Positions 8,590-34,815 of a stretch of 34,815 nt of DNA are shown piece by piece. Under the pieces are notes generated by a model. The model did no database searches. It was not told where the DNA came from and saw nothing but the letters and a program-made list of their open reading frames with translations. The DNA is taken from positions 1-34,815 of the forward strand of contig JACREW010000002.1 of the NCBI GenBank assembly GCA_016212685.1. The letters run 5' to 3'. Each line of letters starts with the position of its first letter. Position 1 is the first letter of the stretch. The translations under genes and the position numbers were made by a program. Origin of the DNA: Nitrospirota bacterium. GTDB taxonomy: Bacteria > Nitrospirota > Thermodesulfovibrionia > Thermodesulfovibrionales > Dissulfurispiraceae.

Positions 8590-8593
8590 GATA

Positions 8594-9835: not shown

Positions 9836-9856
9836 TTTTTCTTCTCCTGACTCTTG

Positions 9857-9937
9857 CCCTTCGACAGGCTCAGGGTGACAGTCTTTATGTTGAACTTATA
9901 GATTTTTCCTGTCATGGTGAGCTTGTCGAACCATGAC
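9857..9937. repeat. Dispersed repeat units (cccttcgacaggctcagggtgaca ... gtcatggtgagcttgtcgaaccatgac)
   Basis: It belongs to the same unit families as 17193-17331 and 21486-21710. The right unit supplies the last 10 codons (VNSHGSTSSP) and the stop codon of the cusC-like ORF. Confidence 0.8.
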
Positions 9938-19638: not shown

Positions 19639-19654
19639 TTAAATGTTTTTTTCT

Positions 19655-19725
19655 GTCATTGCGAGCAAAGCGAAGCAATCCCGTTGTTCTTGAGATTGCT
19701 TCGGCACTTCGTGCCTCGCAATGAC
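19655..19725. repeat. gtcattgcgag...ctcgcaatgac palindromic element (intergenic copy)
   Basis: gtcattgcgag-caaagcgaagcaatc-...-gattgcttcg-gcacttcgtgc-ctcgcaatgac. It fills the spacer between the regulator and kinase genes. Confidence 0.85.
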
Positions 19726-19731
19726 GATATA

Positions 19732-20421
19732 TCAATCTGGGGCTCCGATAAATTTATATCCCGCCCCGTATACCGTTTTTATAAATACCGGCCTTTGAGG
19801 GTTATCTTCTATTTTATGCCTTATATTTTTGACATGCGCGTCGATGACCCTGTCGTATCCCTCGAAATCATATCCCTGCACGGCATTGACGATCTGCAGT
19901 CTGCTGAAGACCATCTGCGGTTTTTCGGCCATGCACAGGAGTATGCGGAATTCGGTGGCTGTCAGGGGTGTAACATCTTTCCCTTTTTTTACTTCCATCG
20001 AGAGTGTATCTATTGTCAGAAGCCCGTCGTTGAAGGAGAGCAGTTTTTTTTCATTTTTTTTCGTCCTTCTGAGATGTGCCTTGACCCGCGCCGCGAGTTC
20101 CCTCGGGCTGAAGGGTTTTATAACATAATCGTCGGCTCCGATGCCGAGCCCTTTGATCCTGTCCTCTTCCGCGCTTTTGGCGGTAAGCATTATTATCGGG
20201 ACATCCGAGAATTCCCTGATAGAGCCGCAAATAGTCTCCCCATCGATGTCGGGAAGCATTAAATCTAAAATTATAAGATCGAAGTCTTTTTTGATGAGTT
20301 GTAGCGCGGCCTGCCCTGTCTCTGCAACGGATACCTTGAAGCCGTCCCTCTCGAGGTATGATTTTACGATGTCCGAGATTTTTTTTTCGTCTTCTACTAT
20401 AAGAATTTTCTCATCGTTCAT
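19732..20421 (-). CDS. OmpR/PhoB-family response regulator
   Basis: Receiver domain (ILIVEDE...LIILDLMLPDIDG...MLTAK) plus winged-helix output domain (LTATEFRILLCMAE...RVIDAHVKNIRHKIE...IKTVYGAGYKF). Confidence 0.92.
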   Translation of the reverse strand: MNDEKILIVEDEKKISDIVKSYLERDGFKVSVAETGQAALQLIKKDFDLIILDLMLPDIDGETICGSIREFSDVPIIMLTAKSAEEDRIKGLGIGADDYVIKPFSPRELAARVKAHLRRTKKNEKKLLSFNDGLLTIDTLSMEVKKGKDVTPLTATEFRILLCMAEKPQMVFSRLQIVNAVQGYDFEGYDRVIDAHVKNIRHKIEDNPQRPVFIKTVYGAGYKFIGAPD

Positions 20422-22840: not shown

Positions 22841-24085
22841 TTAGCCTGTTGTCAACATTTCTTTCACTATTTGCAATGCCTCTTCCTTTGAGCGTATCTT
22901 ACCTTCCAAGACAGCATCCTCAATAGCGGCAAGTATCTTTTTGAATAACGGCGACGGCTTTAAATCGAAATTTTTTATCAGTTCGTCGCCCGTAATAACC
23001 GGAAGAATGCCCATCCTCGCTTTAAATGGTTCATTGTAAAATGCAAGCAGCTTCTTGCAAAAATCGGCAATTTCGGGCGCTTGGGCGATAGAGAGGATAA
23101 TCAAAGGATATATGTCGTCCCGGAATTCTTTTAAAAGCCTTACCGATGCTATTTCGTCAAAATGACCGTCGTATTCTTCGTACTGTCTTAAAATACGGCG
23201 GCGATTAGATGCCGTTTTATAAATAAACTCCACTTCTTTCCTCGACATTTTCAGCCGTATCGACGCGTTTTTGGCAGTGTCCGCATCGGTGAAAAAGACG
23301 GACAACTTAAGGCATATTTTTTTTGATTCCGGAAGCATAAAGTGCGGGTAGTTATTCAAAATATCCTCAACATTTTTATATAACTCTAAATTTAGGACAC
23401 TGAAGTCTTCTTTAAATTCAGGAAAGACATGACGCAGTATGCCCTTATTGCTCATTGTTTTAATTACGTCATACGAATCATCGAGCCTGAGAATATGCCT
23501 CAGTTCTTCGGCTATCCTTTCTACGGCAACAGAGCTTATCAGCGGCGAAAGTCTTCCGGATGCGTCTAATGTGTCTATTTCTATAAAAAAATTCAATTCG
23601 GCGCTGAACCGGTAGATTCTGAGAATCCTCAGAGGGTCTTTTATGAGGTTTTCTTCCGATACCATCCTGACGGTTTTGTTGGAAAGATCATCCCTGCCGC
23701 CATACGGGTCTATAAGACTAAGAGACTGAGGGCTGAGGGCTGAGGGCTGAAGGCTTAGGGGTATCGCCATCGCATTTATGGTGATGTCCCTCTCGGAAAG
23801 GTCGTCAAGAATTGAATCTCCCCTCATGACCGAGATGTCAAGAAAACAGCCGTTTTTTATCACTCGCGCTGTTTGGAATTCCGCATCGAGAAGGACGAAC
23901 GAACCTCCGGTCTCTTCCGCAAATTTCTTTGCGATATTAAGGGAATCGCCTTTTACGGCGATATCGATATCCTTCATATCATTGCCTAAAAGAATATCTC
24001 TGACCGCGCCGCCGACAACGAATGCATTATCAGTAAGACCGTGTTCTTCAGCAAAACAGATGAACAGTTTTAAAAGGGTATGCAT
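22841..24085 (-). CDS. cca: tRNA nucleotidyltransferase (CCA-adding) / poly(A) polymerase family protein
   Basis: It has VVGGAVRDILLGNDMKDIDIAV, ERDITINAMA, DPYGG..DL and RILRIYRF. It carries an in-frame heptamer-array insertion. Confidence 0.85.
   Translation of the reverse strand: MHTLLKLFICFAEEHGLTDNAFVVGGAVRDILLGNDMKDIDIAVKGDSLNIAKKFAEETGGSFVLLDAEFQTARVIKNGCFLDISVMRGDSILDDLSERDITINAMAIPLSLQPSALSPQSLSLIDPYGGRDDLSNKTVRMVSEENLIKDPLRILRIYRFSAELNFFIEIDTLDASGRLSPLISSVAVERIAEELRHILRLDDSYDVIKTMSNKGILRHVFPEFKEDFSVLNLELYKNVEDILNNYPHFMLPESKKICLKLSVFFTDADTAKNASIRLKMSRKEVEFIYKTASNRRRILRQYEEYDGHFDEIASVRLLKEFRDDIYPLIILSIAQAPEIADFCKKLLAFYNEPFKARMGILPVITGDELIKNFDLKPSPLFKKILAAIEDAVLEGKIRSKEEALQIVKEMLTTG
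23716..23757. repeat. Six tandem heptamers (gggctga core x3 plus degenerate flanks) inside cca
   Basis: gactaag agactga gggctga gggctga gggctga aggctta. The 42 nt equal 14 codons, translating as ...SLQPSALSPQSLSL... immediately before the conserved IDPYGG. Confidence 0.8.
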
Positions 24086-24086
24086 A

Positions 24087-24530
24087 TTACCTTTTTGAGT
24101 CTAACATGAATGTTACCGGCCCATCGTTTATAAGGCTTACTTTCATATATGCGCCGAATTGACCGGTGGAAACTGTAATACCGGTTTCTTTCAGTTTTTG
24201 CACGAATGTATTATAAAGCGTTTCTGCTTTGTCCGGCGACCCTGCATTATCAAAAGAAGGGCGGTTTCCTTTTCTGCAGTCTGCGGAGAGTGTGAACTGG
24301 GATACCACGATGATACTTCCATTAATGTCTTGCACGGAGAGGTTCATTTTCCCCTGCTCGTCTTCGAATATTCTGAGGTTTAGCGCTTTTTTTGAGAGAT
24401 ATTCGATGTCTTTTAATTCATCGCCCCTTTCGACGCCCAAAAAAAGCAAGATGCCCTTGCCGATGCTGCCGACAATATCTCCGTCAATTTCTACCGACGC
24501 ATCCGATACCCTCTGGATCAAAGCCTTCAT
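24087..24530 (-). CDS. dtd: D-aminoacyl-tRNA deacylase
   Basis: 147 aa. [17 protein letters not shown]...[12 protein letters not shown]...VSQFTL.AD..KGNRPSF is classic Dtd. Confidence 0.92.
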
Positions 24531-24561
24531 CGTAGATTTATTTTACTTAAGTTCTCCGGTG

Positions 24562-24591
24562 TTGACAAATGATTTTTTACGATGGTATTCT
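24562..24591 (+). promoter_or_regulatory. Candidate sigma70 promoter of the ECF Ni/Co transporter operon
   Basis: TTGACA (24562-24567), an 18-nt spacer, then TATTCT (24586-24591). A short inverted repeat tattct-N6-agaata overlaps the -10 region. Confidence 0.45.
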
Positions 24592-24606
24592 TTGTGCAGA
24601 ATATTA

Positions 24607-24672
24607 GAGCCACGAAGGCTTTATTTAATGACCAAGCAGGTCATAGTTTTGAAGAGCCTTCGTGGCTTTTTT
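24607..24672 (+). promoter_or_regulatory. Terminator-like leader hairpin with U-tract immediately upstream of the cbiM RBS (candidate attenuator)
   Basis: The 13-bp perfect stem agccacgaaggct / agccttcgtggct encloses an inner hairpin atgacc-aagca-ggtcat and is followed by TTTTTT. No plus-strand gene lies upstream for it to terminate. Confidence 0.5.
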
Positions 24673-24686
24673 ATTTGGAGGAGTAA

Positions 24687-25412
24687 ATGCATATCCCGGA
24701 CGGATATTTAAGCCCGCAGACCTATTTACCGCTTTACGGCGTATCGTTCGCTTTTTGGGCAATCGCCCTTAGAAAGCTTAAGAGCGAGCTTTCAGTCAAG
24801 CATATCCCATATCTCGCCATGACAGCGGCCTTTTCTTTTATTATCCAGATGTTCAATATTCCCATCCCCGGAGGAACCACCGGGCATGCCGTAGGCGCGG
24901 GTATTGCAGCGCTTCTTTTAGGGCCATGGACAGCGGTAATAGCGGTATCCGTAGCTTTGATAATTCAGGCTATTGTATTCGGAGACGGCGGGATAACAGC
25001 CATAGGAGCGAACTGCTTTAATATGGCGGTGGTAATGCCTTTTACGTCATATTGGGTTTTTAAACTGGCGATGGGAAAATCAAAAAATCTTTCCTCACCC
25101 CTCTTTAGTAAAGGGGGGAAGGGGGGATTTGCGAGGCTTTCTATAGCGTCATTTCTTTCCGGATATATCGGCCTTTCCATAAGCGCTGTAATTACCGCCG
25201 TAGAGTTTGGAATTCAGCCTATAATTGCTGCGGATGCCGACGGCAAGCCACTCTATGCGCCTTATCCCTTATCTGTGGCTGTTCCTGTCATGGCGTTGGA
25301 ACATTTGTTATTGTTCGGCATAATCGAAGGCGTGGTAACAGCGATGCTGCTTAAATATTTCCTTAAACACGAGCCGGATGCGGTCTATGCGATACGAGGC
25401 GACAGGCAATAG
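24687..25412 (+). CDS. cbiM: ECF transporter substrate-capture component CbiM/NikM (Ni/Co)
   Basis: The N-terminal MHIPDGYLSPQT is the metal-binding Met1-His2 motif. The protein has a multi-TM core. An in-frame palindromic insertion translates as SSPLFSKGGKGGFA. Confidence 0.9.
   Translation: MHIPDGYLSPQTYLPLYGVSFAFWAIALRKLKSELSVKHIPYLAMTAAFSFIIQMFNIPIPGGTTGHAVGAGIAALLLGPWTAVIAVSVALIIQAIVFGDGGITAIGANCFNMAVVMPFTSYWVFKLAMGKSKNLSSPLFSKGGKGGFARLSIASFLSGYIGLSISAVITAVEFGIQPIIAADADGKPLYAPYPLSVAVPVMALEHLLLFGIIEGVVTAMLLKYFLKHEPDAVYAIRGDRQ
25086..25129. repeat. 45-bp-class GC-rich palindromic element inserted in-frame in cbiM
   Basis: aatctttcctcacccctctttagtaaaggggggaaggggggatt, translating as NLSSPLFSKGGKGGF. 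Confidence 0.8.
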
Positions 25413-25428
25413 GCAATGGGCGATAGGC
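25394..25428. repeat. Five tandem heptamers (nnnnggc: acgaggc gacaggc aataggc aatgggc gataggc)
   Basis: Read directly from the sequence. The array spans the cbiM stop codon (25410-25412) and uses the same word family as 2931-3004. Confidence 0.75.
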
Positions 25429-25449
25429 GGATATGATGAGGATTAGAAA

Positions 25450-25782
25450 ATGACAGGATTTCAGAAAAAACTCTGGATTGCTCTTATCATAATGGCCTTG
25501 CTGTCGCCGCTCGGCATTATACTCCCTCAAAAATTCAATGCGGGAGACGCATGGGGAGAGTGGGGAACGGATACCCTCGAGAAATTTTTAGGTTATGTGC
25601 CGGAGGGATTGAAGAAGATGGCGGATATATGGAAGGCGCCGATAGCCGATTACAATCTTGGAGACGAGAATGCTTCATTTATTGTCCAAATTGTTTCTTA
25701 TATTATATCGGGAATTTTAGGAATAACGCTTGTGGGCGGTGTTGTATACTTGATAACAAGGCTTTTAGTAAAGAAGGGTTAG
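25450..25782 (+). CDS. PDGLE-domain / CbiN-NikN-like small membrane component
   Basis: It has TM segments at both the N- and C-terminal ends and the central motif YVPEGLKK (PDGLE-like). Its position between the M and Q components fits this role. Confidence 0.7.
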   Translation: MTGFQKKLWIALIIMALLSPLGIILPQKFNAGDAWGEWGTDTLEKFLGYVPEGLKKMADIWKAPIADYNLGDENASFIVQIVSYIISGILGITLVGGVVYLITRLLVKKG

Positions 25783-25788
25783 AGGCGG

Positions 25789-26637
25789 ATGTCTTTTATA
25801 GAAAGCGGCATAGAGCATTTAGGAAAGGTCATTAAGACCGGTTATGTCCAGTGGGAACTGGCGTCCGGAAACGGATTTTTTCAGAGGCTTGACGCGCGGA
25901 TAAAAGTGCTTTTCCTGATTTTCTTTATCGTTATTGTAAGCCTCAAAAGGGAACTGCTGCCTGAAATTGCGATAGCTTTTTTTGTTTTCAGCCTGACATT
26001 CGCATCGAGATTAAACATTTTGAATTTCTACGGCAGAGTCCTTTTTTTCGGATTCGTTTTCGGTTTTCTTATTGCCATGCCTTCGGCTTTCAATGTCATC
26101 ACAAAAGGAGATATTATCCTGCCTCTAATACATTTTTCAAAACCTTATGATTTCTGGATATACCATATTCCCGCAACTATCGGCATTACCGAAGAGGGAA
26201 TTTCAACGGTCGCCATGCTTACTCTCAGGGTTATAAATTCGGTGTCGCTGTCTTTTCTTGTTCTCTATACCACGCCGTTCCTGGACATTATCAGGGCATT
26301 GAAGGTTTTTAGAGTGCCTGATGCCGTTTTAATGATTATAACCCTGACATACAAATATATTTTTATTTTCGCGAAGACGATAGAGGATATGCATCTTGCA
26401 AAGAAGAGCAGGACAGCGGGAGGCATCGGCAATAAAGAGGCGAGGGAATGGATCGCGGGAAGGATTGCATTTATGTTCAAAAAGAGCCGGCAGAGGTGCG
26501 AGGATGTTTTTAATGCTATGATTGCGAGAGGGTTTTCGGATACGGTTGCGATTTACGGTTTTAAAAAAATGAATAAGCGGGATGCGGCTGCGGGGTGCGT
26601 ATTATTTTCGGCGGGCATTATATTTTTATGGATATAA
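25789..26637 (+). CDS. cbiQ: ECF transporter transmembrane (T) component CbiQ
   Basis: Multi-TM protein with the conserved coupling region A.KSR.... and ARGF (HLAKKSRTAGG...MIARGF). Confidence 0.85.
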   Translation: MSFIESGIEHLGKVIKTGYVQWELASGNGFFQRLDARIKVLFLIFFIVIVSLKRELLPEIAIAFFVFSLTFASRLNILNFYGRVLFFGFVFGFLIAMPSAFNVITKGDIILPLIHFSKPYDFWIYHIPATIGITEEGISTVAMLTLRVINSVSLSFLVLYTTPFLDIIRALKVFRVPDAVLMIITLTYKYIFIFAKTIEDMHLAKKSRTAGGIGNKEAREWIAGRIAFMFKKSRQRCEDVFNAMIARGFSDTVAIYGFKKMNKRDAAAGCVLFSAGIIFLWI

Positions 26638-26649
26638 TTGTGTTAACAA

Positions 26650-26780
26650 AACATAGGACAAGGCATTTCCGCTCATTCTCGAAAGGCATCCGAGCCTTTC
26701 TCCGAGGCTGCGCCAGCCCGCTTAATCATCCGTGGTACGCTTTGGGCTGCCGAAGCCGCTTCAATGCCTTATCCTATGTT
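26650..26780. repeat. ~130-bp structured element with 18-bp terminal inverted repeats in the cbiQ-cbiO spacer
   Basis: aacataggacaaggcatt (26650-26667) pairs with aatgccttatcctatgtt (26763-26780) with 1 mismatch. Internal hairpins include gaaaggc-atccga-gcctttc and cagccc...gggctg. Confidence 0.6.
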
Positions 26781-26802
26781 TCGAATATATAACGGGAGTG
26801 CT

Positions 26803-27612
26803 ATGGAAAATATCATAAAGATTGAAAATGTGAGCTATAAATATTACGACAAAATACCTGCGCTTGAGGACGTAAGCCTTCCGATAAGAGAGGGCGAGAA
26901 GTTTGCCGTTATAGGCGCAAACGGGAGCGGCAAATCGACGCTTCTTCAGATAATGAACGGCCTCATATATCCATCAAGCGGGCGCGTGTTTTTCAGAGAC
27001 AAAGAGGTATCGGAGAAAACATTAAAGGATAAAGAGTTCCTGAAATTTTTCAGGGAGAAGGTGGGATATGTGTTTCAGGACTCGGACATACAGTTATTTT
27101 GTCCGACTGTTCTGGATGAGCTGCTTTACGGCCCTATACAATTAGGGCTTAACGAAAATGAGGCTATTGATAGGGCGCACGAGGTAATGCAGATGCTGAA
27201 TATAGAAAACCTGAAAGACCGTCCCTCGTATATGCTTTCCGGCGGAGAAAAGAAGAGGGTCGCAATAGGCTCCGTATTGACTATGAATCCGGATGTATTG
27301 CTCTTTGATGAGCCCACAAACGGCCTCGATCCGAGGACGCAGTGCTTTTTAGTTGAGCTGCTTTTTGCGCTCAGCGAGGCCGGGAAAACCATTGTTATCG
27401 CGACCCATGATCTGTCATTGGTGGACGAGTTGCATACAAGAGTTGCCGTGCTTTCAGAGGATCACAGGCTTGAAAAAACAGGCAGCGCGGAAGATATTTT
27501 AAAGGATGAGGAATTGCTCTTAAAGGTGAATCTTGTTCACGAGCATATGCATTGCCACGGACCATCGGCGCATAAGCATATACATTCGCACTATTTATTT
27601 CACAAACATTGA
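26803..27612 (+). CDS. cbiO: ECF transporter ATPase CbiO with His-rich C-terminal tail
   Basis: Walker A GANGSGKST, signature LSGGEKKRV, Walker B LLFDEPTNGLD. The tail is HEHMHCHGPSAHKHIHSHYLFHKH. I chose the start at ATG 26803 (GGGAG RBS) over 26764. Confidence 0.9.
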   Translation: MENIIKIENVSYKYYDKIPALEDVSLPIREGEKFAVIGANGSGKSTLLQIMNGLIYPSSGRVFFRDKEVSEKTLKDKEFLKFFREKVGYVFQDSDIQLFCPTVLDELLYGPIQLGLNENEAIDRAHEVMQMLNIENLKDRPSYMLSGGEKKRVAIGSVLTMNPDVLLFDEPTNGLDPRTQCFLVELLFALSEAGKTIVIATHDLSLVDELHTRVAVLSEDHRLEKTGSAEDILKDEELLLKVNLVHEHMHCHGPSAHKHIHSHYLFHKH

Positions 27613-27828
27613 AAGGGAGCATATGGATGGCAGGCATACCTCAAAACCTTTAATAATGCGATGAGATTATTAGATAGCCTGTTTATGCTATTTAATTTAA
27701 AAGTGATGCTGAAGTTGCCCTTAAACGGCGGGAGGGTTCGGCACAAGGTATCGCGATTAAAGGTTTTTCGGCATACCCGCCATCCATATTAAAAATATCC
27801 GATTGCGGATTATGGGAAAGGAGAATAT

Positions 27829-28041
27829 ATGAACGAACTCGATAAGTTGAAACACCTTTTGCATCGCTGGAAGGAGCATAATGACGAGCATGCGGAGACT
27901 TACAGGACATGGGCGGAGAAGGCAGCAACGCTCGGTAATAAGGAACTGTCGGAGGTTCTCGATAAACTTTATCATGAGACGAGAAAGATGAACGGGCTTT
28001 TTGAAGAGGCTATAAAGGCAATCCAAGTTGAAAAATCATAA
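27829..28041 (+). CDS. Small helical His-rich protein of unknown function
   Basis: 70 aa with a GGAAAGGAG RBS. The sequence is KHLLHRWKEHNDEHAETY..., with no recognisable family. Confidence 0.5.
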   Translation: MNELDKLKHLLHRWKEHNDEHAETYRTWAEKAATLGNKELSEVLDKLYHETRKMNGLFEEAIKAIQVEKS

Positions 28042-28115
28042 AGGCATATGCTATAAAGTCTGTAATTTTGAGGCATGAAAATTCTTGAGAGGAGGAGGTG
28101 GTTAAAGTAAGTACA

Positions 28116-28150
28116 AAACACTAAACACTAAATGCTAATACTTAATATGG
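28116..28150. repeat. Five tandem heptamers (aaacact aaacact aaatgct aatactt aatatgg)
   Basis: Read directly from the sequence. The array lies immediately upstream of the riboswitch. Confidence 0.7.
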
Positions 28151-28345
28151 CTTGATGTCAGGGAAGAGGAGTGCCACTTTAATGTGAATTCTCCCGCTGC
28201 CCCGCAGCCGTGAAGGGAACGAAAGCCCAATTAAAAGCCACTGTCATGGGTAATATCATGATGGGAAGGCGGGCAAGTAGAAGGCATCACCTGTTTGCAT
28301 GAAGCAATCAGGTGATAGATGCCCTGAGCCGGAAGACCTATCCAG
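28150..28345 (+). ncRNA. Cobalamin (B12) riboswitch
   Basis: Core elements occur in the canonical order: GGGAAG..GGAGTGCC..AATGTGAATTCTCC, GCTGCCCCGCAGCCGTGAAG, AAGCCACTG...GGGAAGGC, and the B12-box-like GAGCCGGAAGACCTATCC. It lies just upstream of a TonB-dependent receptor. Confidence 0.75.
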
Positions 28346-28394
28346 ACCATACATCTTACAAAATCCAAATCAAAATTTCCCGAGGGAGGAAAAG

Positions 28395-30644
28395 ATGAAA
28401 AGACTTTTATCTTTATTCAATCGCATCACGCATTACGCATCACCCATCACGGTTGTTTTGCTTGCCTTTAGCCATCTGCCATTCGTCCTTACCCTGTTTG
28501 CTGTTCCTGTATTTGCACAGGGGAAGACCACATCTTTAGAAGAAATCGTAGTCACTGCCACGAGAACGGAAAAGGAATTGACGTCTGCACCCGGCAGTGT
28601 CTCGGTCGTAACCAAAGAAGACATTGAGAAAAGGAATATCAAGACGGTTGATGAGGCTTTGAATACTACTGCCGGTGTTTTTGACAAACGCGGCAAAGGG
28701 TTGATGGATCTAATGTCTTCTGTTACTCTCCGTGGAATCCCATCTCAACAAAGAACGCTCATTTTAATGGACGGCATTACCCTTAATGACTCCTACTCAG
28801 GAGGAGTCCGCTTTGACGGCATGGCTGCAGAAAATGTGGAGCGAATAGAGGTTGTAAAGGGCGCAGCTTCAAGCCTTTACGGCGGCTATGCAATGGGCGG
28901 CGTTGTAAACATTATCACAAAGATGCCTGAAAAACGGGAATTTACCCTTAAGACAGGTTATGGCTCAAGCTGGGAAAGGGGAGAGGCCATGGATGATGTA
29001 AGGAAGTTTTATCTATCCTATGGCGATAAGTTTAAAGACAAACTGAGCCTCTTTGTAAGTTATGGCTATAGGACAACAAACGGCTATCCTGCGGACTTTA
29101 ATGTCCAGAGCAGCAAGCCAACAGCAGGCATCACAGGTTGGTCTTACACAACAAACAATCAGGGACAGACGCGCTATCTCATCGGCGATAAGGGTGACAA
29201 CAGATGGTGGGACGATAATATCACATTAAAGGCTGGGTATAACTTTTCTAAGACATCTAAGGTCAATCTCTCCTTTATCAGAACCAGCTACGAATACAAC
29301 TATGACGAGCCGCACACCTATCTCAAAAATTCTTCAGGCAATCCTGTATGGTCATACGGGACTATAAGGGAAGCATCCTTTCTTTCAGGCAGCGGAGGCA
29401 GGGAGCAGAGTATTTACAACATCGGCTTTGAAACGGAATTTTCAAAGGTTAAAACAAAACTGACTTTAGGGATGGTTGATAATGGGAAAAACTGGAATGT
29501 TACACCCGGTACTACTGCATCCACTACAAGAACAGGCGGTCCGGGCAAGGTAAGCGAGACACCATCACAAAGCTATAATGCTGATATTCAATTTACCGTG
29601 CCGGTATTTGACAGGCATATACTGACCTTTGGCGGCACCTTCAGGCATGGATGGGCAGATACAAAGGAGCATAATCTCACGAACTGGAAGGATGAAGACT
29701 CAAAGACCACTTTAGCATATCAATCAAAAGGTAAGGACAGGACTTATGCCATGTTTTTGCAGGACGAGATAATGATTCTGAATAACCTCACTGCTTACAT
29801 CGGCTTCAGGCAGGACTGGTGGGAGACCTATGACGGCTATGTGGATCAGGTCGGCACGGCTGGTTATCCAAAGGAATACGATTCAAGAAATGCCTCTGCC
29901 TTCAGTCCAAAGGCTGCAATTGTTTACAAGCCTTTTGAAAAAACGACTCTAAGGACATCAATAGGAAAGGCATTCAGGCCGCCAACGGTTTACGAACTCT
30001 ACAGGACATGGACATCATCATCGGGAGTTACTTACGCTTCAAATCCTGATTTAAAGCCGGAGACCACCACATCATGGGATATAGGGATTGAGCAGGGCTT
30101 ATGGAAAGGCGCAAAGATAAAGGCTGCATATTTTGAAAACTACATGGAAGACCTTATCTACAGAAAAACTGTTTCATCAACCTATCAGGAATCAATAAAT
30201 GCAGGAAAGGCAGAAAGCAAGGGGGTTGAAATCGAAGCTGAGCAGAGATTTGATAAATGGCTCAGGCTTTTTGCCAATTTCACTTACACCGATGCAAAAC
30301 TGAAGGAGAATAATGCAAAGCCTGAGACAGTCGGCAAGAAATTAACGGATGTGCCTGAAAGGATGTTTAATGCAGGCGCTGAGTTTGAGAAAGGCCTGTT
30401 CTCTGCTTCATTGACCGGACGGTATGTGAGCAAGAGATATTCCAACGATGAAAACAAAGACACGGTGAACAATGTCTATACCTCATACGACCCTTATTTT
30501 ACAGCAGATGCAAAGGTCTCTTATAAACTTACAAAGTTTGCCACTCTTTCTTTCTCTGTGGACAACATCTTTGATAGAGACTACTTCGCTTATTACAAAG
30601 CGCCGGGAAGATCATGGTTCGGGGAACTGACATTAAAGTTTTAG
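28395..30644 (+). CDS. TonB-dependent outer-membrane receptor (BtuB-like size)
   Basis: Start at ATG 28395 (GGGAGGA RBS). The listed upstream extension overlaps the riboswitch. The signal peptide ends in VFAQG. It has the TonB box/plug LEEIVVTATR, the plug motif RGIPSQQRTLILMDG, and a terminal aromatic residue (...ELTLKF). Confidence 0.9.
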   Translation: MKRLLSLFNRITHYASPITVVLLAFSHLPFVLTLFAVPVFAQGKTTSLEEIVVTATRTEKELTSAPGSVSVVTKEDIEKRNIKTVDEALNTTAGVFDKRGKGLMDLMSSVTLRGIPSQQRTLILMDGITLNDSYSGGVRFDGMAAENVERIEVVKGAASSLYGGYAMGGVVNIITKMPEKREFTLKTGYGSSWERGEAMDDVRKFYLSYGDKFKDKLSLFVSYGYRTTNGYPADFNVQSSKPTAGITGWSYTTNNQGQTRYLIGDKGDNRWWDDNITLKAGYNFSKTSKVNLSFIRTSYEYNYDEPHTYLKNSSGNPVWSYGTIREASFLSGSGGREQSIYNIGFETEFSKVKTKLTLGMVDNGKNWNVTPGTTASTTRTGGPGKVSETPSQSYNADIQFTVPVFDRHILTFGGTFRHGWADTKEHNLTNWKDEDSKTTLAYQSKGKDRTYAMFLQDEIMILNNLTAYIGFRQDWWETYDGYVDQVGTAGYPKEYDSRNASAFSPKAAIVYKPFEKTTLRTSIGKAFRPPTVYELYRTWTSSSGVTYASNPDLKPETTTSWDIGIEQGLWKGAKIKAAYFENYMEDLIYRKTVSSTYQESINAGKAESKGVEIEAEQRFDKWLRLFANFTYTDAKLKENNAKPETVGKKLTDVPERMFNAGAEFEKGLFSASLTGRYVSKRYSNDENKDTVNNVYTSYDPYFTADAKVSYKLTKFATLSFSVDNIFDRDYFAYYKAPGRSWFGELTLKF

Positions 30645-31402
30645 CGCGGAAGAGATTTCCGTTAGCTGTTTCGCTGTTGTTTCATGCGGCTGCGATAGCG
30701 CTTGCCTTTTCAATTGCTGGACATGAAAGAGAGACGGTCTTTACAGTGGAGCTAAAGGAAATGGGCTGGAAAGATTTTGCAAAAGTCATCAATAAGGACA
30801 CATCGCACAGGAGAATTATGGTCAATCATAAGGAACCGGAGACTTTTACAGCGGGCAGCAGAAGGCAAAGCACTGATGCCGCGCTTCCTGCTTCTTATGA
30901 GCAGAGACCAGTGCAAAAGCATGATGATGAGAAAATGCCCGAGGGTCAGGAATTCATAGGCACTCCGGCAGTCGTTAATCCGGCGGCAGTTATTGACGCT
31001 GTGAAGCTTTTTTCCGGAGGTCAGATGGCTGCTCGTGTTTCTACTCCATCCGGTATCAAAGAGAGCGAAGATACAGGTAGGATTTCAACGGCTGTCCGGG
31101 CAGCAAAGGAGATAGCGAAGGGCGAATTCGGTTCACTGAACGGCCCTTCTTTTTTGAAGATGATCCGTCCTGAATATCCTCGTCTTGCCAGAAGGCTCGG
31201 CAAAGAGGGAAAGGTGCTTTTAAGGCTTTTCATTGATGAGCATGGAAGACTTGTAAGTGTGGAGATAGTTGAAAAGGCAGGGCATGGCTTTGATGAGGCA
31301 GCAATTGATGCTGTAAAGGCATCTACCTTCAGGCCTGCGAAATTAAATGGGCATTCGGTGGCATGTAAGGCAGTGCTGCCGATCAGGTTTAGGCTTGAGT
31401 AG
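30614..31402 (+). CDS. tonB: TonB-family energy transducer
   Basis: N-terminal TM with SxxxH (VSLLFH), a linker, and a C-terminal TonB domain (RPEYPRLARRLGKEGKVLLRLFIDEHGRL..VEIV...GFDEAAIDAVKASTFRPAKLNG). Confidence 0.82.
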   Translation: MVRGTDIKVLARKRFPLAVSLLFHAAAIALAFSIAGHERETVFTVELKEMGWKDFAKVINKDTSHRRIMVNHKEPETFTAGSRRQSTDAALPASYEQRPVQKHDDEKMPEGQEFIGTPAVVNPAAVIDAVKLFSGGQMAARVSTPSGIKESEDTGRISTAVRAAKEIAKGEFGSLNGPSFLKMIRPEYPRLARRLGKEGKVLLRLFIDEHGRLVSVEIVEKAGHGFDEAAIDAVKASTFRPAKLNGHSVACKAVLPIRFRLE

Positions 31403-31617
31403 CTGCCGGCATGGTGTGCGTCTATCTTTAGCAAAATTAATTAGTCGCTTGTAGTAGATGAAGAGCAAAGCAGAATATGAAAGGTTTCTCAGTGCAGAGC
31501 TAAGAGGCAGTCGTTACTTTGCCCCTCAGAGAACCCAGAAATTTTGCTAAATCCAGCCGCCCACCTGCTGATAGTTAATTGCAGGTGAGCAGGCTACAAA
31601 TTTGAATAAGTGAGGTG

Positions 31618-32334
31618 ATGACTATGGATTTGAGCATTGTTTTGTGGATGGGAGGTATGCTTTTCAGCCTCGGCATATTTGCCGTAAAAGTCGGCTTTGG
31701 GCTTAGTTTCGGGAGAATGAAATGGAAGGGGTTATTTCTGACTCTTTCTTTATATCTCGCCCTTTTTATTCTTATTGCCATACTCTCGGAACAATTAATC
31801 AAAATCCTTGAGCCTATTCTGAAAAAAGGTCCATATCTCCATGCATTAATGGCAACAGGCATGATTGTGTGGGGAGTTCTTTTGCTCAGAAAACAGAAGA
31901 CAGGAGCCTCCCAACCTCTTAACCTCTCAACCTCTTCTCTGTTGTTATTGATTCCCTGCCCTGTCTGTCTTACTGCCATGACATTTTCCACATGGGCGGC
32001 TCTAAGCGTGATTAAACTGCCGTCTCTCATTGTGGGCATAGGACTGGGCGTTATCTTTGTCCTTTTGACCCTTGCAATTGTGGGTCTGACCCGCATCAAA
32101 CAGACTTCAAGCCCTGAAATCAGTCTGGGACTCGGCATGATTGCAATCGGGCTTTATTTCATGGCTTCTCTGTATCTTCCCGCCAAGATTGAGGAGGCAA
32201 AAGGAGTATATAAATCATTTCTCACCGAAGGCGGCAATATTGCCCTGAATAATAGTATCGGCGTATTTGCACTGCTTTTTGTTACCTTGGTTATTGGTTA
32301 TCTGACAAATAAAAAACGGGAGGTTAAAAAGTGA
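31618..32334 (+). CDS. Polytopic membrane protein, DUF2162-like (predicted transporter) with CPVC motif
   Basis: About 7 hydrophobic segments and LLLLIPCPVCLTAM. Possible starts are GTG 31615, ATG 31618 or ATG 31624. The family assignment is from memory. Confidence 0.6.
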   Translation: MTMDLSIVLWMGGMLFSLGIFAVKVGFGLSFGRMKWKGLFLTLSLYLALFILIAILSEQLIKILEPILKKGPYLHALMATGMIVWGVLLLRKQKTGASQPLNLSTSSLLLLIPCPVCLTAMTFSTWAALSVIKLPSLIVGIGLGVIFVLLTLAIVGLTRIKQTSSPEISLGLGMIAIGLYFMASLYLPAKIEEAKGVYKSFLTEGGNIALNNSIGVFALLFVTLVIGYLTNKKREVKK

Positions 32335-33011
32335 ATATACTTGCAGGTCTCGAAACATTTCTCTATGTAATATCATCCGCCCTCTTTTATCCGGTAGTTG
32401 CTGGGCTTGTGCTTCTTACATTCTGGATAGTTATTTCCTTCGGCAGCTTTCTGAGGGAGTACATAGATAGAAAGCAGGGGAATTCTTCTGTATTAAACAG
32501 GTATAAAAAGACTCTTGAATCTGAAATTCAATTATTCCATGTCATTGCGAGGGACGGAGTTCCGAAGCAATCTCAAAACGAGATTCCTCGCTTCGCTCGG
32601 AATGACAGCAAACAACATAATGATGCCCTCGATATAAGACTTGAAAGGTTTCTGCAGGAGGCAGAACTCGGACTCATTAAATCCCTTGATAAAATCAGGT
32701 TTGCTATTCGTGTTGGTCCTGCCCTTGGCTTGATGGGCACACTGATACCGATGGGCATCTCCCTTTCCGCCCTTGCACAGGGAGATATGCCTAAAATGGC
32801 AGGAAGCATGGTTACGGCATTCACAACAACTGTTGTAGGACTTGCCTGCGGTGTAGCTGCTTATCTCATGTCACTTGCAAAGGAAAAATGGGTCAGGGCG
32901 GATATGAGGGAAATGGAATATCTCACTGAGCTAACGCTTAGAACACAGAAGGCAGAGGTCAGAAGTCAGACTACAAAGGAGAATGAAGATGAGATTTATG
33001 AAGAGGCGTAG
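32331..33011 (+). CDS. MotA/TolQ/ExbB-family proton-channel protein with in-frame repeat insertion
   Basis: C-terminal channel motifs GPALGLMGTLIPM and MVTAFTTTVVGLACGV. The GTG start overlaps the upstream stop (GTGA). Confidence 0.75.
   Translation: MNILAGLETFLYVISSALFYPVVAGLVLLTFWIVISFGSFLREYIDRKQGNSSVLNRYKKTLESEIQLFHVIARDGVPKQSQNEIPRFARNDSKQHNDALDIRLERFLQEAELGLIKSLDKIRFAIRVGPALGLMGTLIPMGISLSALAQGDMPKMAGSMVTAFTTTVVGLACGVAAYLMSLAKEKWVRADMREMEYLTELTLRTQKAEVRSQTTKENEDEIYEEA
32541..32606. repeat. gtcattgcgag...cggaatgac palindromic element inserted in-frame in the ExbB-like gene
   Basis: It translates as VIARDGVPKQSQNEIPRFARND and lies in the loop between TM1 and the channel domain. Confidence 0.8.
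32954..32974. repeat. Three tandem heptamers (agaggtc agaagtc agactac) at the 3' end of the ExbB-like gene
   Basis: Read directly from the sequence. It translates as AEVRSQTT. Confidence 0.6.
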
Positions 33012-33327
33012 AAGGTTTGATAAATATGAGCAGCCGCTTGAAGACCCTATATCAGGAGTCGCCAATCTTTTTGATGCAAGCGTTGTCTTTATTGTGAGCA
33101 TGATGGTCGCCCTCTTCATGGCCTACAACATGCTGGACCTGCTTGACCCGAAATCAGAGGTGACGATTACAAAAAAGAGTGCCGACGGAAAGATAGAGAT
33201 TGTCACAAAAAAGGGCAAGGAGATTAAGGTTCAAAAAGTGACGGATAAACGATTGGGCGGCGAGGGGGAGAGACTCGGAACAGCGTATCAGCTTAAGGAT
33301 GGGAGGGTTATTTATGTGCCTGAGTAG
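32989..33327 (+). CDS. DUF2149-like single-TM protein (possible ExbD-analogous partner)
   Basis: It contains DPISGVANLFDASVVFIVSMMVALF followed by a soluble tail. In-frame ATGs occur at 32983, 32989 and 32998. ATG 32989 has the best spacing to the AAGGAG RBS. The family assignment is from memory. Confidence 0.6.
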   Translation: MRFMKRRRRFDKYEQPLEDPISGVANLFDASVVFIVSMMVALFMAYNMLDLLDPKSEVTITKKSADGKIEIVTKKGKEIKVQKVTDKRLGGEGERLGTAYQLKDGRVIYVPE

Positions 33328-34815
33328 GTCAGAGTTTAGAGTCAGGAGTTTAGAGTTGAAGGTTATATGGATATTCATAATTCTATTTTTTACTATTCTT
33401 TCAACTGCTGCCAATGCCGAGCCTATAAAAGTAAGTCTTCTCCTCGGCGATACGCATTCAAGGACTGCCATAGAGGCAATAAAATTAGTTCAGAGTCAAG
33501 AGTCCGGAGTTAAGAGTCATGATATTTCATTCCATGTACATCCATCAAAGGACATACGGAATAAAGACCTCAGGCATCTTAAGGAATCTGGGCTTGTGAT
33601 AATCAATATAATGGGAAGGCAGCTTGTAAATACTGTTAAGCCTGAGATTGAAGAGGCAATTAAAAACGGTGCAAAGGTATATGCCGTGGCAGCAAGCGGA
33701 TCGTATAATGATGAGGCCAAAAAACTGGGCATTTTATTGGACAAAAAAATAGAAGAGTATTATCAGCACGGAGGCATTGAAAATCTTAAAAACATGGTTC
33801 TTTACGCATTAAAGAAGGATTTCGATTTTGATGTCTCTTATGGTGATGTGATTAAACTCCCTGAATTCGGGATATACGATTACAGGACAAAGAAGGTTTT
33901 TGAGGATTTTGAGGAATACAAAAAGGTCTACAGTCAAGAGTCAAATCCCCCCTTACCCCCCTTTTCTAAAGGAGGGCATGGGGGGATTAATAAACCGTGG
34001 ATAGGGATGGTTTTTTATAAAAATACTGTTGAATCGGGCCAGACAAAACATCTTGATGCAGTAATTGAAAACCTTGAATCCTCCGGCTTTAATGTCCTGC
34101 CTGTGTACGGCTATCCATCGGAGAATGCGGTGGAGAGATTTTTCTTTAATGAAAGTGGAAAAAGCAGAGTAAATGCGGTAGTTGGCATGTCTTTAAAAAT
34201 GGGCTTGAATCCACAGGTTGCCATACCGCTTCTAACTAAACTGAATGTTCCTGTGATTGACGCCATCACCCTTTATAGCCAGTCAAGAGAGGAGTGGGAA
34301 AAATCCCCTGTGGGTCTTGATATCTTTGAAAGGTCATGGCAGATAGCAGGCCCTGAAATGGCTGGAATTATCCAGCCCACAGTTATTGCGTCAAAGGAGA
34401 AAGTGGTTGATAAAGAGACAGGCATTGAATACATAGAAGAAAGACCGATATCCGAAAGGATAGAGAGGCTTACAGAGAGAGTAAAGGCATGGATAAATCT
34501 TCAGGAAAAGGCAAATAAAGACAAGAGGATTGCCATAATCTATTACAACTACCCGCCCGGCAAGCAGAACATAGGGGCGTCTTATCTAAATGTTCTTCCT
34601 GAGAGCCTTTGGGAGATACTGAACAGGTTGAAGACGGAAGGGTATGGTATAGGAGATAAGGGATTATGCAGCTATGAAGAGCCGTCATTGCGAGGAGTGG
34701 AGCGACGAAGCAATCTTAAAAAAGACGAGATTGCTTCGCCTTCGGCTCGCAATGACAACAACAAGGAATACATCTGTATTAGTAGGGAACAACTTTTTAA
34801 TGATATCCACAATTA
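33314..34815 (+). CDS. CobN/Mg-chelatase-like protein with N-terminal signal/anchor sequence (3' end outside the window)
   Basis: The frame is open from ATG 33314 to the window end. It was not in the ORF track because no stop occurs. It has the hydrophobic N-terminus VIWIFIILFFTILSTAANA-EP. CobN-type motifs are present: RIAIIYYNYPPGKQNIGASYLNVLPESLWEILNRLKTEGY and GFNVLPVYGY. It overlaps the DUF2149 gene by 14 nt. Confidence 0.82.
   Translation, partial: MCLSRSEFRVRSLELKVIWIFIILFFTILSTAANAEPIKVSLLLGDTHSRTAIEAIKLVQSQESGVKSHDISFHVHPSKDIRNKDLRHLKESGLVIINIMGRQLVNTVKPEIEEAIKNGAKVYAVAASGSYNDEAKKLGILLDKKIEEYYQHGGIENLKNMVLYALKKDFDFDVSYGDVIKLPEFGIYDYRTKKVFEDFEEYKKVYSQESNPPLPPFSKGGHGGINKPWIGMVFYKNTVESGQTKHLDAVIENLESSGFNVLPVYGYPSENAVERFFFNESGKSRVNAVVGMSLKMGLNPQVAIPLLTKLNVPVIDAITLYSQSREEWEKSPVGLDIFERSWQIAGPEMAGIIQPTVIASKEKVVDKETGIEYIEERPISERIERLTERVKAWINLQEKANKDKRIAIIYYNYPPGKQNIGASYLNVLPESLWEILNRLKTEGYGIGDKGLCSYEEPSLRGVERRSNLKKDEIASPSARNDNNKEYICISREQLFNDIHN
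33324..33358. repeat. Five tandem heptamers (gtaggtc agagttt agagtca ggagttt agagttg) at the 5' end of the CobN-like gene
   Basis: Read directly from the sequence. It translates as SRSEFRVRSLEL. Confidence 0.7.
33491..33518. repeat. Four tandem heptamers (cagagtc aagagtc cggagtt aagagtc) inside the CobN-like gene
   Basis: Read directly from the sequence. It translates as QSQESGVKS. Confidence 0.7.
33944..33988. repeat. 45-bp GC-rich palindromic element inserted in-frame in the CobN-like gene
   Basis: aatccccccttaccccccttttctaaaggagggcatggggggatt is a near-perfect palindrome translating as NPPLPPFSKGGHGGI. It is preceded by two heptamers, cagtcaa gagtcaa. Confidence 0.85.
34684..34756. repeat. 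gtcattgcgag...ctcgcaatgac palindromic element inserted in-frame in the CobN-like gene
   Basis: gtcattgcgagg-agtggagcgacgaagcaatc-ttaaaaaagac-gagattgcttcgccttcgg-ctcgcaatgac. It translates as SLRGVERRSNLKKDEIASPSARND. Confidence 0.85.

Follow-up and report, generated by a model that had tools for sequence, protein, structure and literature searches.

The last part of a 34,815-nt contig of a Nitrospirota bacterium (GenBank assembly GCA_016212685.1, contig JACREW010000002.1) carries a cobalamin (B12) riboswitch followed by genes for a TonB-dependent receptor, TonB, a DUF2162 membrane protein, an ExbB-like protein, a DUF2149 protein and a CobN-like protein. The stretch is one whole contig of 34,815 bp and is referred to as the window below. 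We are highly confident that the cluster encodes a periplasmic system of the Hmu/BtuS type that belongs to the B12 regulon, and its most likely role is the uptake of corrinoids that contain cobalt, with their processing taking place outside the cytoplasm. We propose the removal of cobalt as the chemical step more tentatively. Class I chelatases are textbook examples of ATP-driven cytoplasmic machines. HmuS, described in 2025, is a periplasmic relative that runs class I chelatase chemistry backwards on heme (PMC12583661). The window cluster represents a less studied, B12-regulated branch that is widely distributed among environmental anaerobes (Nitrospirota, Thermodesulfobacteriota, Geobacterales, Desantisbacteria) and also occurs in some proteobacteria, and it bears on the role of periplasmic class I chelatase homologues and of their T/U/V partners. 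The gene set had been proposed from the sequence alone (hereafter the original prediction). Every gene of it was recovered by Pfam (Table 1), and the start/stop overlaps of 4, 23-29 and 14 nt given for the last four genes were exact.

The riboswitch, originally placed at 28150-28345, was accepted in an Rfam scan with a match to the full RF00174 model (61.9 bits against a gathering score of 31.5). Besides RF00174, the scan of positions 24000-34815 returned only two matches at E<=1, both at chance level. The first ATG of the receptor open reading frame (ORF; 28299) falls within the aptamer, and ATG 28395, 36 nt past the aptamer end, has a GGAGG and a typical signal peptide (MKRLLSLFNRITHYASPITVVLLAF...); on these features, ATG 28395 is the true start of the receptor. 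No terminator-like site was found between aptamer and receptor ATG, so that control is probably exerted at translation; minimum free energy folding of the expression platform did not resolve a sequestration of the ribosome-binding site. By its class, the riboswitch would let adenosylcobalamin repress the operon (OFF logic).

Relatives were collected in a one-genome-per-species scan, which gave 279 with a CobN-like N-terminus. The best 80 loci and six others, together 86 including the window, were compared (cited by locus number, L001 to L088). The closest relatives (57-74% identity) belong to the Nitrospirota/Thermodesulfovibrionia, followed by Thermodesulfobacteriota, Geobacterales and Desantisbacteria; loci of beta- and gammaproteobacteria are more distant, and the proteobacterial version has no DUF2162. 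The gene order is conserved: a TonB-dependent receptor, sometimes TonB (at the same position in L086, L087, L037, L009 and L016), DUF2162, the ExbB-like protein, DUF2149 and a CobN-like protein of about 1300-1400 aa. The co-conservation of the last four genes with TonB-dependent receptors, which had been put forward for the window, is thus seen across the related loci. The Desulfobacter locus L004 (6585-11560) shows a riboswitch-led cluster that is broken by insertion sequence elements (DDE transposases), has a split CobN-like gene and is apparently decaying.

Riboswitches were mapped by Rfam on 40 loci and by an nhmmer profile on all loci. In the doubly checked loci the profile found all Rfam RF00174 matches and missed RF01482 in L003 and L030; riboswitch-negative loci were re-checked with Rfam in part. 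The tally covers the 65 loci that include their 5' boundary. Of the 36 clusters with DUF2162, 29 have a B12 riboswitch directly before the opening gene of the operon, as do 5 of the 29 clusters without DUF2162 (Fisher p 3e-7, a value that overstates independence because the loci are phylogenetically related). Riboswitch control, as originally predicted, is therefore a conserved property of the DUF2162-containing type. The riboswitch subtype of the window also precedes the receptor in L016, L017, L025, L026, L040 and L043; in the two Trichlorobacter loci among them (L040, L043) it is the receptor-proximal copy that is of this subtype (about 62-72 bits on RF00174, versus about 100). In Trichlorobacter and one metagenome-assembled genome of the Desulfobulbales, the cluster is led by cobalamin riboswitches in tandem (L040:5795-6347, L043:5419-6000, L085:7499-7947, L055:7700-8146). 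The Desantisbacteria clusters have RF01482 in place of RF00174 (L003:4604-4740, L030:860-998). Two riboswitch families at the same cluster suggest that the regulatory link was kept, or reinvented, with different RNA families.

The CobN-like gene ends at the contig end. It is partial because the stretch is a complete contig cut by the assembly; the product is cut at residue 500 and covers positions 1-297 of the 1090-position PF02514 profile. The signal or anchor sequence proposed for its N-terminus is present: a basic n-region and a hydrophobic core of 17-19 residues lead to ANA followed by EP (read as MCLSRSEFRVRSLELK-VIWIFIILFFTILSTAANA followed by EP), with TTG 33356 as an alternative start. 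Among the 71 full-length relatives, almost every protein begins with a segment resembling a signal peptide, as a rule closed by an AxA-type site, and almost every one finishes with a transmembrane helix and a basic Arg/Lys tail behind it (for example ...SSAPIPYLFLIGFLVFIGLIAWGFRRR). The helices at both ends, read with the positive-inside rule, place the bulk of the protein in the periplasm. The same topology has been predicted or reported for BtuS1/2 and HmuS (PMC6460266, PMC12583661, PMC12094164). On these grounds the CobN-like protein is very likely extracytoplasmic, as originally predicted.

Databases label the relatives 'cobaltochelatase subunit CobN', and their domain V is of CobN type (see below), so that one might suspect a mis-started canonical CobN of the aerobic biosynthetic pathway. 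This reading is extremely improbable and in effect refuted. The hydrophobic N-terminus and the mature start 'EP.KVSLLLGD' recur in the 71 relatives, and a mis-called start is unlikely because the next in-frame Met, M100, would remove conserved sequence. The C-terminal transmembrane anchor speaks against it as well, and all scores on the NCBIfam CobN and BchH equivalog models stay under their cut-offs; full-length L007 reached 998 bits at best compared to 1619 for the CobN equivalog, and 676 compared to 822 on TIGR02257. In L086 of assembly GCA_041643235.1, whose DUF2162 is 80% identical to that of the window, the cluster stands within an anaerobic B12 operon (CobC-CbiP-CbiB-CobD-CbiA-CbiX/CbiC, riboswitch, cluster, radical SAM protein, CobA/BtuR, TP_methylase). 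With CbiX encoded there, a cytoplasmic chelatase for cobalt insertion is already in the cell, and G. lovleyi carries the cluster without CobS/CobT (PMC3403914). Both findings agree with the earlier statement that the CobN-like protein is not a biosynthetic chelatase. No ChlI/ChlD/CobST-type genes were found among the neighbours called in L001, L003, L086 and L088.

We compared the CobN-like protein with class I chelatases of known structure. Its N-terminal third is nearest to ChlH in the Protein Data Bank (PDB; E 3e-28), followed by HmuS (5e-21) and CobN (5e-13), and in domain III the order of similarity is CobN, HmuS, ChlH. The C-terminal part, taken from relatives, is nearest to HmuS (9.5e-47), then to CobN (5e-30) and ChlH (3e-18). 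Since the window copy stops at residue 500, the evidence on domain V and the C-terminal part comes from relatives that are 57-74% identical. According to Nath et al. 2025, HmuS is defined by a Met-rich insertion of 22-120 residues in domain IV, by Met79/His254 and by LSLDHxxEFMGG (PMC12583661). Met79-Gly80 aligns with 'NIMGRQ' of the window and is kept. His254-Gly-Arg aligns with 'SLKMGL' (Leu-Lys-Met-Gly-Leu), which has no His, although gaps nearby make this column only moderately reliable. The Met-rich insertion is absent in the 71 full-length relatives, which have at most 8 Met per 60 residues; the window copy ends before domain IV. The HFG(T/A)HG motif with the essential His538 of HmuS is kept as HIGTHG in L007, and the pattern H[ILVF]G[TK]HG occurs in 42 of the 71 relatives; it was not pursued in the proteobacterial branch. 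In domain V, 60 of the 71 carry LD[NTG]DDx[FY]QYLGG (LDNDDxFQYLGG in the clade of the window), with or without a riboswitch. The columns of HmuS His1209 and Glu1212 are Asp and Gln in the relatives. CobN has the same Asp...Gln pair (LDSDDYYQFEGG and ADSDDYFQYHGG), whereas in the porphyrin enzymes the two positions are His and an acid (HmuS DHVYE in LSLDHVYEFMGG; ChlH SHYFD in DVSHYFD). By sequence, the protein thus combines an HmuS-like setting with a CobN-type domain V motif and would be a member of neither HmuS proper nor CobN proper.

The three small membrane protein genes form a unit of their own. DUF2162 matches its profile over positions 1-223 of 223 (191.8 bits against a gathering score of 34.4). 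It contains a CPVC motif, and Pro-Cys-Pro-x-Cys is invariant in 36 homologues; His76 is conserved as well, with invariant columns taken from 36 homologues and 43 locus homologues. The AlphaFold2 model has 8 helices at a mean confidence (pLDDT) of 73. A fold search of the PDB gave no meaningful match (best E 0.37, TM-score <= 0.37), and no homology to HupE/UreJ was detected. From these features DUF2162 is a candidate permease or redox/metal site. The ExbB-like protein passes PF01618 (45.7 bits against 22.9) and aligns with the canonical ExbB proteins of the same loci (hhalign probability 87%, E 4.5e-6); its core motif GPALGLMGTLIPMG...MVTAFT is kept in 76 loci. Judged by these matches, it is a true member of the MotA/ExbB family. 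DUF2149 (112 bits against 27.1, profile positions 2-92 of 92) has a basic cytoplasmic N-terminus, one transmembrane helix with an invariant Asp31 (NLFD) and a small beta-rich periplasmic domain. Over its 112 aa it is 81-89% identical from Nitrospirota to Geobacterales, Desantisbacteria and an anammox planctomycete (120 homologues). In the same comparisons the CobN-like protein and DUF2162 reach about 40-60%, which points to unusually strong constraint on DUF2149.

DUF2149 stands where ExbD would be expected. A relationship to ExbD could not be demonstrated: hhalign against 19 canonical ExbD proteins gave E 0.14 with only the Asp-containing transmembrane helix aligned, and no profile match in the PDB was obtained. 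The protein matches only PF09919 of Pfam and not PF02472, and its AlphaFold2 model is poor (pLDDT 55.8). Canonical ExbD is encoded in 18 of the 86 loci, mostly together with ExbB and TonB within the cluster operon or next to it (examples of ExbB-ExbD(-TonB) are L015, L018, L024, L026, L034, L035, L038, L085 and L001), and the ExbB-like/DUF2149 pair is retained even where canonical ExbBD-TonB shares the operon. The trio therefore looks like a separate energizing or transport module, as the original prediction had it. The metagenomic locus L001 (448-22092) encodes FecR, an STN-domain receptor, DUF2162, the ExbB-like protein, DUF2149 and four consecutive CobN-like paralogues, followed by TonB-ExbB-ExbD and a receptor. 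With FecR and without a riboswitch, it looks regulated by iron or a sigma factor.

CbiZ (adenosylcobinamide amidohydrolase, PF01955) is encoded in 21 of the 86 loci (L016:3581-4402, L019:2928-3809, L035:6271-7158, L048:8040-8900, L088:9092-9940, L050:6713-8368 and others). At least 14 of the 21 have a clear signal peptide, and two (L050, L066) are fused to a BtuF-like periplasmic binding domain; these features suggest that corrinoids are trimmed in the periplasm. In the literature searched, an exported CbiZ was not described in any paper that we found. CbiZ or BtuF-CbiZ occurs without BtuCD in most loci, and BtuF with an ABC ATPase is present in L041 and L072. From the riboswitch, the export of CbiZ and the CobN character of the domain V motif, we infer that the imported substrate is a corrinoid. 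A census of other neighbour genes gave nothing but lineage-specific families.

The gene cbiM is found in 10 of the 86 loci, where it is interleaved with the cluster (L016, L014, L009, L007). In L016 the entire cluster lies between cbiM-cbiN and cbiQ-cbiO, and in L014 cbiQ-cbiO begin 18 nt past the CobN-like gene. L017 and L025 repeat the cbiMNQO arrangement of the window, in which cbiM, PDGLE, cbiQ and cbiO stand just upstream of the riboswitch; CbiM of the window scores 290 bits on the NCBIfam CbiM equivalog (cut-off 225), and this transporter is a probable functional partner of the cluster that takes up Co2+. In several Nitrospirota loci a conserved gene of about 315 aa, resembling S-adenosylmethionine (SAM)-dependent methyltransferases, is interleaved with cbiM/cbiQ or with the cluster (L007:7195-7980, L009:4258-5193, L016:4359-5312, L020:92-928).

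Such an arrangement could also mean that cobalt or nickel is taken up in a TonB-dependent way without a tetrapyrrole. In that case the receptor would import Co2+ or a small chelate of cobalt, and the CobN-like protein would be a periplasmic chaperone that binds or strips metal and passes the ion to CbiMNQO, to DUF2162 or, in Methylomonas, to HupE/UreJ. The adjacency to and interleaving with cbiMNQO fit this idea. So do the many riboswitch-free beta- and gammaproteobacterial versions, the CooT and DUF4198 genes in the L088 region of assembly GCA_009176125.1, and the Methylomonas loci (L067-L071, L077-L079; e.g. L071:4003-16477). The latter have neither riboswitch nor DUF2162, and the genes for the ExbB-like, DUF2149 and CobN-like proteins have two HupE/UreJ Ni/Co permeases and a further receptor as flanking genes, one HupE being located at the position of DUF2162. 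Nevertheless, we regard uptake of the bare metal as distinctly unlikely: an exported corrinoid amidohydrolase inside the operon would have no place in it, the domain III and domain V motifs are conserved in the relatives, and the sole characterised homologue works on a tetrapyrrole (PMC12583661).

The receptor itself gives no substrate assignment by sequence, and we treat it as the gene at the HmuR/BtuB position. Its best NCBIfam match is the heme/hemoglobin receptor subfamily (248 bits, under the 317-bit cut-off), it reaches 198 on the BtuB model (cut-off 600), and its matches in the PDB rank CirA before PhuR and PhuR before BtuB. The heme-type receptor match raises the question if the cluster is an ordinary Hmu-type heme/iron system in which the riboswitch is incidental. 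The gene set corresponds to hmuR, S, T, U and V (PMC11681262), a B. fragilis btuS1 btuS2 double mutant is impaired on heme iron (PMC6460266), and the FecR and STN-type receptor of L001 are typical of iron regulons. But the riboswitch is conserved across phyla and belongs to two families, the cluster can lie inside B12 synthesis operons, it contains no HmuY, its neighbours are CbiZ and cbiMNQO and not feoB, and the features of HmuS (Met-rich insertion, His254, His1209, Glu1212) fail. A heme system is therefore improbable.

Corrinoid processing in the periplasm, the reading that we prefer, can be put together as follows. When adenosylcobalamin is scarce, the riboswitch would permit expression of the operon. 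The receptor, energised via TonB, would move a cobalt chelate into the periplasm, most likely cobinamide or unusable cobamides, and in many relatives the exported CbiZ would trim corrinoids to cobyric-acid-like forms. The CobN-like protein, located at the inner membrane and facing the periplasm, would bind the macrocycle in a cavity with the CobN-type domain V motif and may take out the metal in a reversal of the CobN reaction, by analogy with HmuS. Since the periplasm offers neither ATP nor CobST, the ExbB-like protein and DUF2149 could act as a dedicated proton-motive stator that powers this work. DUF2162, with PCPxC in the membrane, might serve as the route by which the macrocycle, the metal or reducing equivalents cross the membrane, and freed Co2+ could enter through CbiMNQO and serve the cell's own anaerobic, CbiX-dependent B12 synthesis. 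Our confidence is highest for repression by adenosylcobalamin and falls over periplasmic action without ATP or CobST, a corrinoid substrate and a proton-motive ExbB-like/DUF2149 unit to cobalt removal. The last step draws on HmuS as a homologue with proven de-chelatase activity: the accessory trio equals hmuT/U/V (PMC11681262), and the C-terminal half is nearest to HmuS.

Several points weigh against cobalt removal and the corrinoid reading as a whole. We know of no enzyme that takes cobalt out of a corrin, and cobalt corrins are much more inert than Fe(II)-heme. The genes cbiMNQO often adjoin any B12-regulon gene, so that adjacency to them is weak evidence. To our knowledge, B. fragilis cannot make the corrin ring and would have little use for free cobalt. 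A riboswitch-linked BtuS operon exists in this organism (PMC10100974). The receptor is slightly closer to heme receptors than to BtuB. The domain V and C-terminal evidence is borrowed from relatives and would hold for the window copy by similarity. Furthermore, the window cluster has TonB and no canonical ExbBD, and the ExbB-like/DUF2149 pair may thus energise TonB and the receptor here. When B12 is limiting, import of the intact corrinoid should be more valuable than its destruction, and the link between DUF2162 and the riboswitch would suit a corrinoid permease at least as well as metal removal.

These last points lead to the main rival of cobalt removal, an importer of intact corrinoids. 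Here corrinoids would reach the periplasm through the TonB-dependent receptor and, in relatives, be remodelled there by CbiZ. The CobN-like protein would be a tethered periplasmic receptor that hands the corrinoid over, DUF2162 the permease, and the proton-motive force would be supplied via the ExbB-like protein and DUF2149, with no metal removed. The system would be an ATP-independent alternative to BtuFCD. It can coexist with de-chelation, as may hold for heme in Hmu, where HmuT/U/V may carry heme inward over the inner membrane (PMC10100974, PMC12094164). Apart from this parallel and the B. fragilis operon, the concentration of riboswitches in DUF2162 clusters, the exported CbiZ and BtuF-CbiZ fusions without BtuCD, the conserved equivalent of HmuS Met79 (a heme ligand at the head/neck site) and the value of an intact corrinoid at B12 scarcity speak in favour of it. 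Yet a chelatase fold of about 1300 aa with His538-type and CobN-type acidic motifs (in 42 to 60 of 71 relatives) exceeds the needs of a binding protein, DUF2162 resembles no transporter of known structure, some loci (L041, L072) already have BtuF with an ABC ATPase, and the cbiMNQO interleaving and the HupE/UreJ-flanked versions are left unexplained. We consider pure import somewhat unlikely, though a serious contender.

A more specific form of de-chelation is doubtful but would have far-reaching consequences: the ExbB-like/DUF2149 stator, with a client that is neither TonB nor a flagellum, would drive a periplasmic chelatase homologue, replace the CobST/ChlID AAA+ ATPase and remove cobalt mechanically, with CbiZ preparing the substrate and DUF2162 giving electrons or carrying the product. 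Such a stator-driven chelatase would be the first biological corrin de-metallation and would allow cobalt recycling from 'dead' B12 analogues. If either cobalt stripping from corrinoids or import driven by the proton-motive force is true, models of anoxic cobalt and corrinoid cycling would change, functions would be assigned to DUF2162 and DUF2149, and the question of how the medically relevant Hmu system works would be directly affected.

The coordinates of the features are collected in Table 1.

Table 1. Cluster and adjacent cobalt transporter genes in the 34,815-nt window
Feature	Position	Strand	Evidence
Cobalamin (adenosylcobalamin-type) riboswitch aptamer	28137-28359	+	RF00174, 61.9 bits, E 3.6e-13, model 1-189
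TonB-dependent outer-membrane receptor, 749 aa, signal peptide	28395-30644	+	Pfam Plug E 1e-25, barrel E 1.5e-55
TonB-family energy transducer, start codon uncertain	30614-31402	+	TonB_C E 1.1e-20
Intergenic spacer TonB/DUF2162, 212 nt	31403-31614	+	fold z = -0.17, no Rfam match at E<=1
DUF2162, polytopic inner-membrane protein, HmuT position	31615/31624-32334	+	PF09930 E 1.4e-56
MotA/TolQ/ExbB-family proton-channel protein, HmuU-like	32331-33011	+	PF01618 E 6.7e-12
DUF2149, HmuV-like, ExbD position	32983/32989-33327	+	PF09919 E 1.8e-32
CobN-like exported class I chelatase homologue, N-terminal 500 aa	33314-34815	+	PF02514 E 3.9e-68
cbiM / PDGLE (CbiN-like) / cbiQ / cbiO, energy-coupling factor (ECF)-type cobalt transporter	24687-27612	+	Pfam CbiM 3.7e-63, PDGLE, CbiQ, ABC_tran

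The 212-nt spacer between TonB and DUF2162 had been described as structured, which did not hold: shuffled sequence folds equally well (81 of 200 shuffles were as good), and the spacer shows no sign of structure or conservation. In the closest relative, L086, the gap between the two genes is just 14 nt. A regulatory RNA in the spacer was rejected on the shuffle test together with the Rfam scan.

Between cbiO and the riboswitch, a His-rich helical ORF of 70 aa (27829-28041, plus strand) is without a match in both Pfam and NCBIfam. It is kept directly after cbiO in L017 (86%), L025 (71%), L007 and L016, and may encode a small metal-binding accessory of the CbiMNQO transporter. A palindromic repeat of about 70 bp (GTCATTGCGAGG ... 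CCTCGCAATGAC) occurs in three copies in the window (19655-19725, 32541-32606, 34684-34756), with 5 half-site matches observed and 0.16 expected. One copy is intergenic; the other two lie in frame in the genes for the ExbB-like protein (~32541-32606) and the CobN-like protein (34684-34756), adding the peptides ...VIARDGVPKQSQNEIPRFARNDS... and ...PSLRGVERRSNLKKDEIASPSARND..., which are absent from the relatives. Further upstream, the minus strand at 5401-11249 and 18262-20421 encodes a resistance-nodulation-division efflux system (AcrB/CusA-like pump, membrane-fusion protein, outer-membrane factor) and a two-component system (HAMP histidine kinase, OmpR-type regulator).

The closest characterised system is hmuYRSTUV of Bacteroidota. 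HmuS of B. thetaiotaomicron is bound to the membrane and acts as a de-chelatase, splitting heme into Fe(II) and protoporphyrin IX; a single transmembrane helix lies at each end, and its structure was solved by cryo-electron microscopy at 2.6 A (PDB 9D26; PMC12583661). HmuU is annotated as MotA/TolQ/ExbB, HmuV as DUF2149 and HmuS as "cobaltochelatase subunit CobN" (PMC11681262, PMC10434189). Both systems have a TonB-dependent receptor, a large periplasm-facing chelatase homologue with transmembrane helices at both ends, a polytopic membrane protein at the HmuT position (assigned by position), an HmuU-like MotA/ExbB protein and an HmuV-like DUF2149 protein, and the chelatase homologues share the Met79-Gly80 equivalent and the HxGTHG motif. 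They differ in several respects. The window cluster has no HmuY-like gene, its order is R-TonB-T-U-V-S instead of Y-R-S-T-U-V, and it is under a B12 riboswitch instead of iron/heme control. Its chelatase clade lacks the Met-rich insertion and has Leu for His254, Asp for His1209 and Gln for Glu1212. Its neighbours are cbiMNQO, CbiZ and B12 synthesis genes instead of heme/iron genes, and the hosts are Nitrospirota, Thermodesulfobacteriota and Geobacterales. By gene content and sequence, the cluster is the non-Bacteroidota, B12-regulated counterpart of hmuRSTUV. The original prediction had considered the mechanism of such clusters uncharacterised; this stands for the B12-regulated variant, but not for the homologous hmuYRSTUV, where HmuS is a proven de-chelatase (PMC12583661) and genetic data exist on BtuS1/BtuS2 (PMC6460266).

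CobN-like proteins were named "BtuS" and predicted to salvage metalloporphyrins by Rodionov 2003, as cited in PMC6460266. Rocha et al. predicted BtuS1 and BtuS2 of B. fragilis to be periplasmic and found them jointly needed for the use of heme iron (PMC6460266), and Mesle et al. 2023 described hmu-like operons without HmuY behind a cobalamin riboswitch, including the B. fragilis BtuS1 operon (PMC10100974). The protein in the window shows the traits given for the BtuS family in that citation (PMC6460266): it is CobN-like and apart from CobN/ChlH, neighbours a TonB-dependent receptor, is B12-regulated and is predicted to be periplasmic and membrane-anchored, its likeness to BtuS1 being one of description. 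The Bacteroides operon differs in having two HmuR copies, and the hosts of the window clade in having their own anaerobic B12 pathway.

A cobN-exbB-exbD-tonB group among cobalamin genes on plasmid pSZ77 of G. lovleyi, in a genome without CobST, was noted by Wagner et al. 2012, who left its role open and suggested transport of B12 or corrinoid precursors (PMC3403914). This locus of Trichlorobacter (Geobacter) lovleyi SZ (pSZ77/pGLOV01 Glov_3667-3675; L085) is part of our set, and its CobN-like protein is 49.5% identical to that of the window. It encodes a TonB-dependent receptor, DUF2162, MotA/ExbB, DUF2149 and CobN, then canonical ExbB-ExbD-TonB and a second receptor, and sits between cobyric acid synthase, cobT, bzaF and an ECF permease. 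The four-gene core with receptor, the leading riboswitch, the cobalamin-gene setting and the lack of CobST are common to both loci, whereas L085 is plasmid-borne and has tandem riboswitches, the extra ExbB-ExbD-TonB and the second receptor in contrast to the single riboswitch of the window. The DUF2162/ExbB-like/DUF2149 trio was not recognised as a unit in the 2012 paper (PMC3403914).

With CobNST and ChlHID (PDB 9UK9, 7C6O, 4ZHJ) the CobN-like protein shares the PF02514 fold, HxGxHG of domain III and the Glu of (V/P)GEG, and with CobN also LD-x-DD-x-x-Q-x-x-GG of domain V. But CobN and ChlH work as soluble proteins of the cytoplasm with an AAA+ ATPase as their power source, whereas the window protein is predicted to be exported and tethered, with no ATPase partner nearby. 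Like ExbB-ExbD, TolQ-TolR and MotA-MotB, the ExbB-like/DUF2149 pair has a member that passes the Pfam MotA_ExbB threshold, and its genes overlap as if translationally coupled. DUF2149 resembles ExbD/TolR/MotB in its inward basic N-terminus, a single transmembrane helix with an invariant Asp and a small periplasmic domain, but it has no significant profile similarity to ExbD, and its periplasmic part is predicted to be all-beta. Taken together, the B12-linked cluster type has been noticed before (Rodionov 2003, as cited in PMC6460266; PMC3403914; PMC10100974), and what our comparison adds is the quantified, DUF2162-specific link to riboswitches of two families. It further adds CbiZ proteins that are exported, a domain V motif of CobN type, canonical ExbBD-TonB sets that co-occur with the cluster, and cobalt/nickel permeases interleaved with it.

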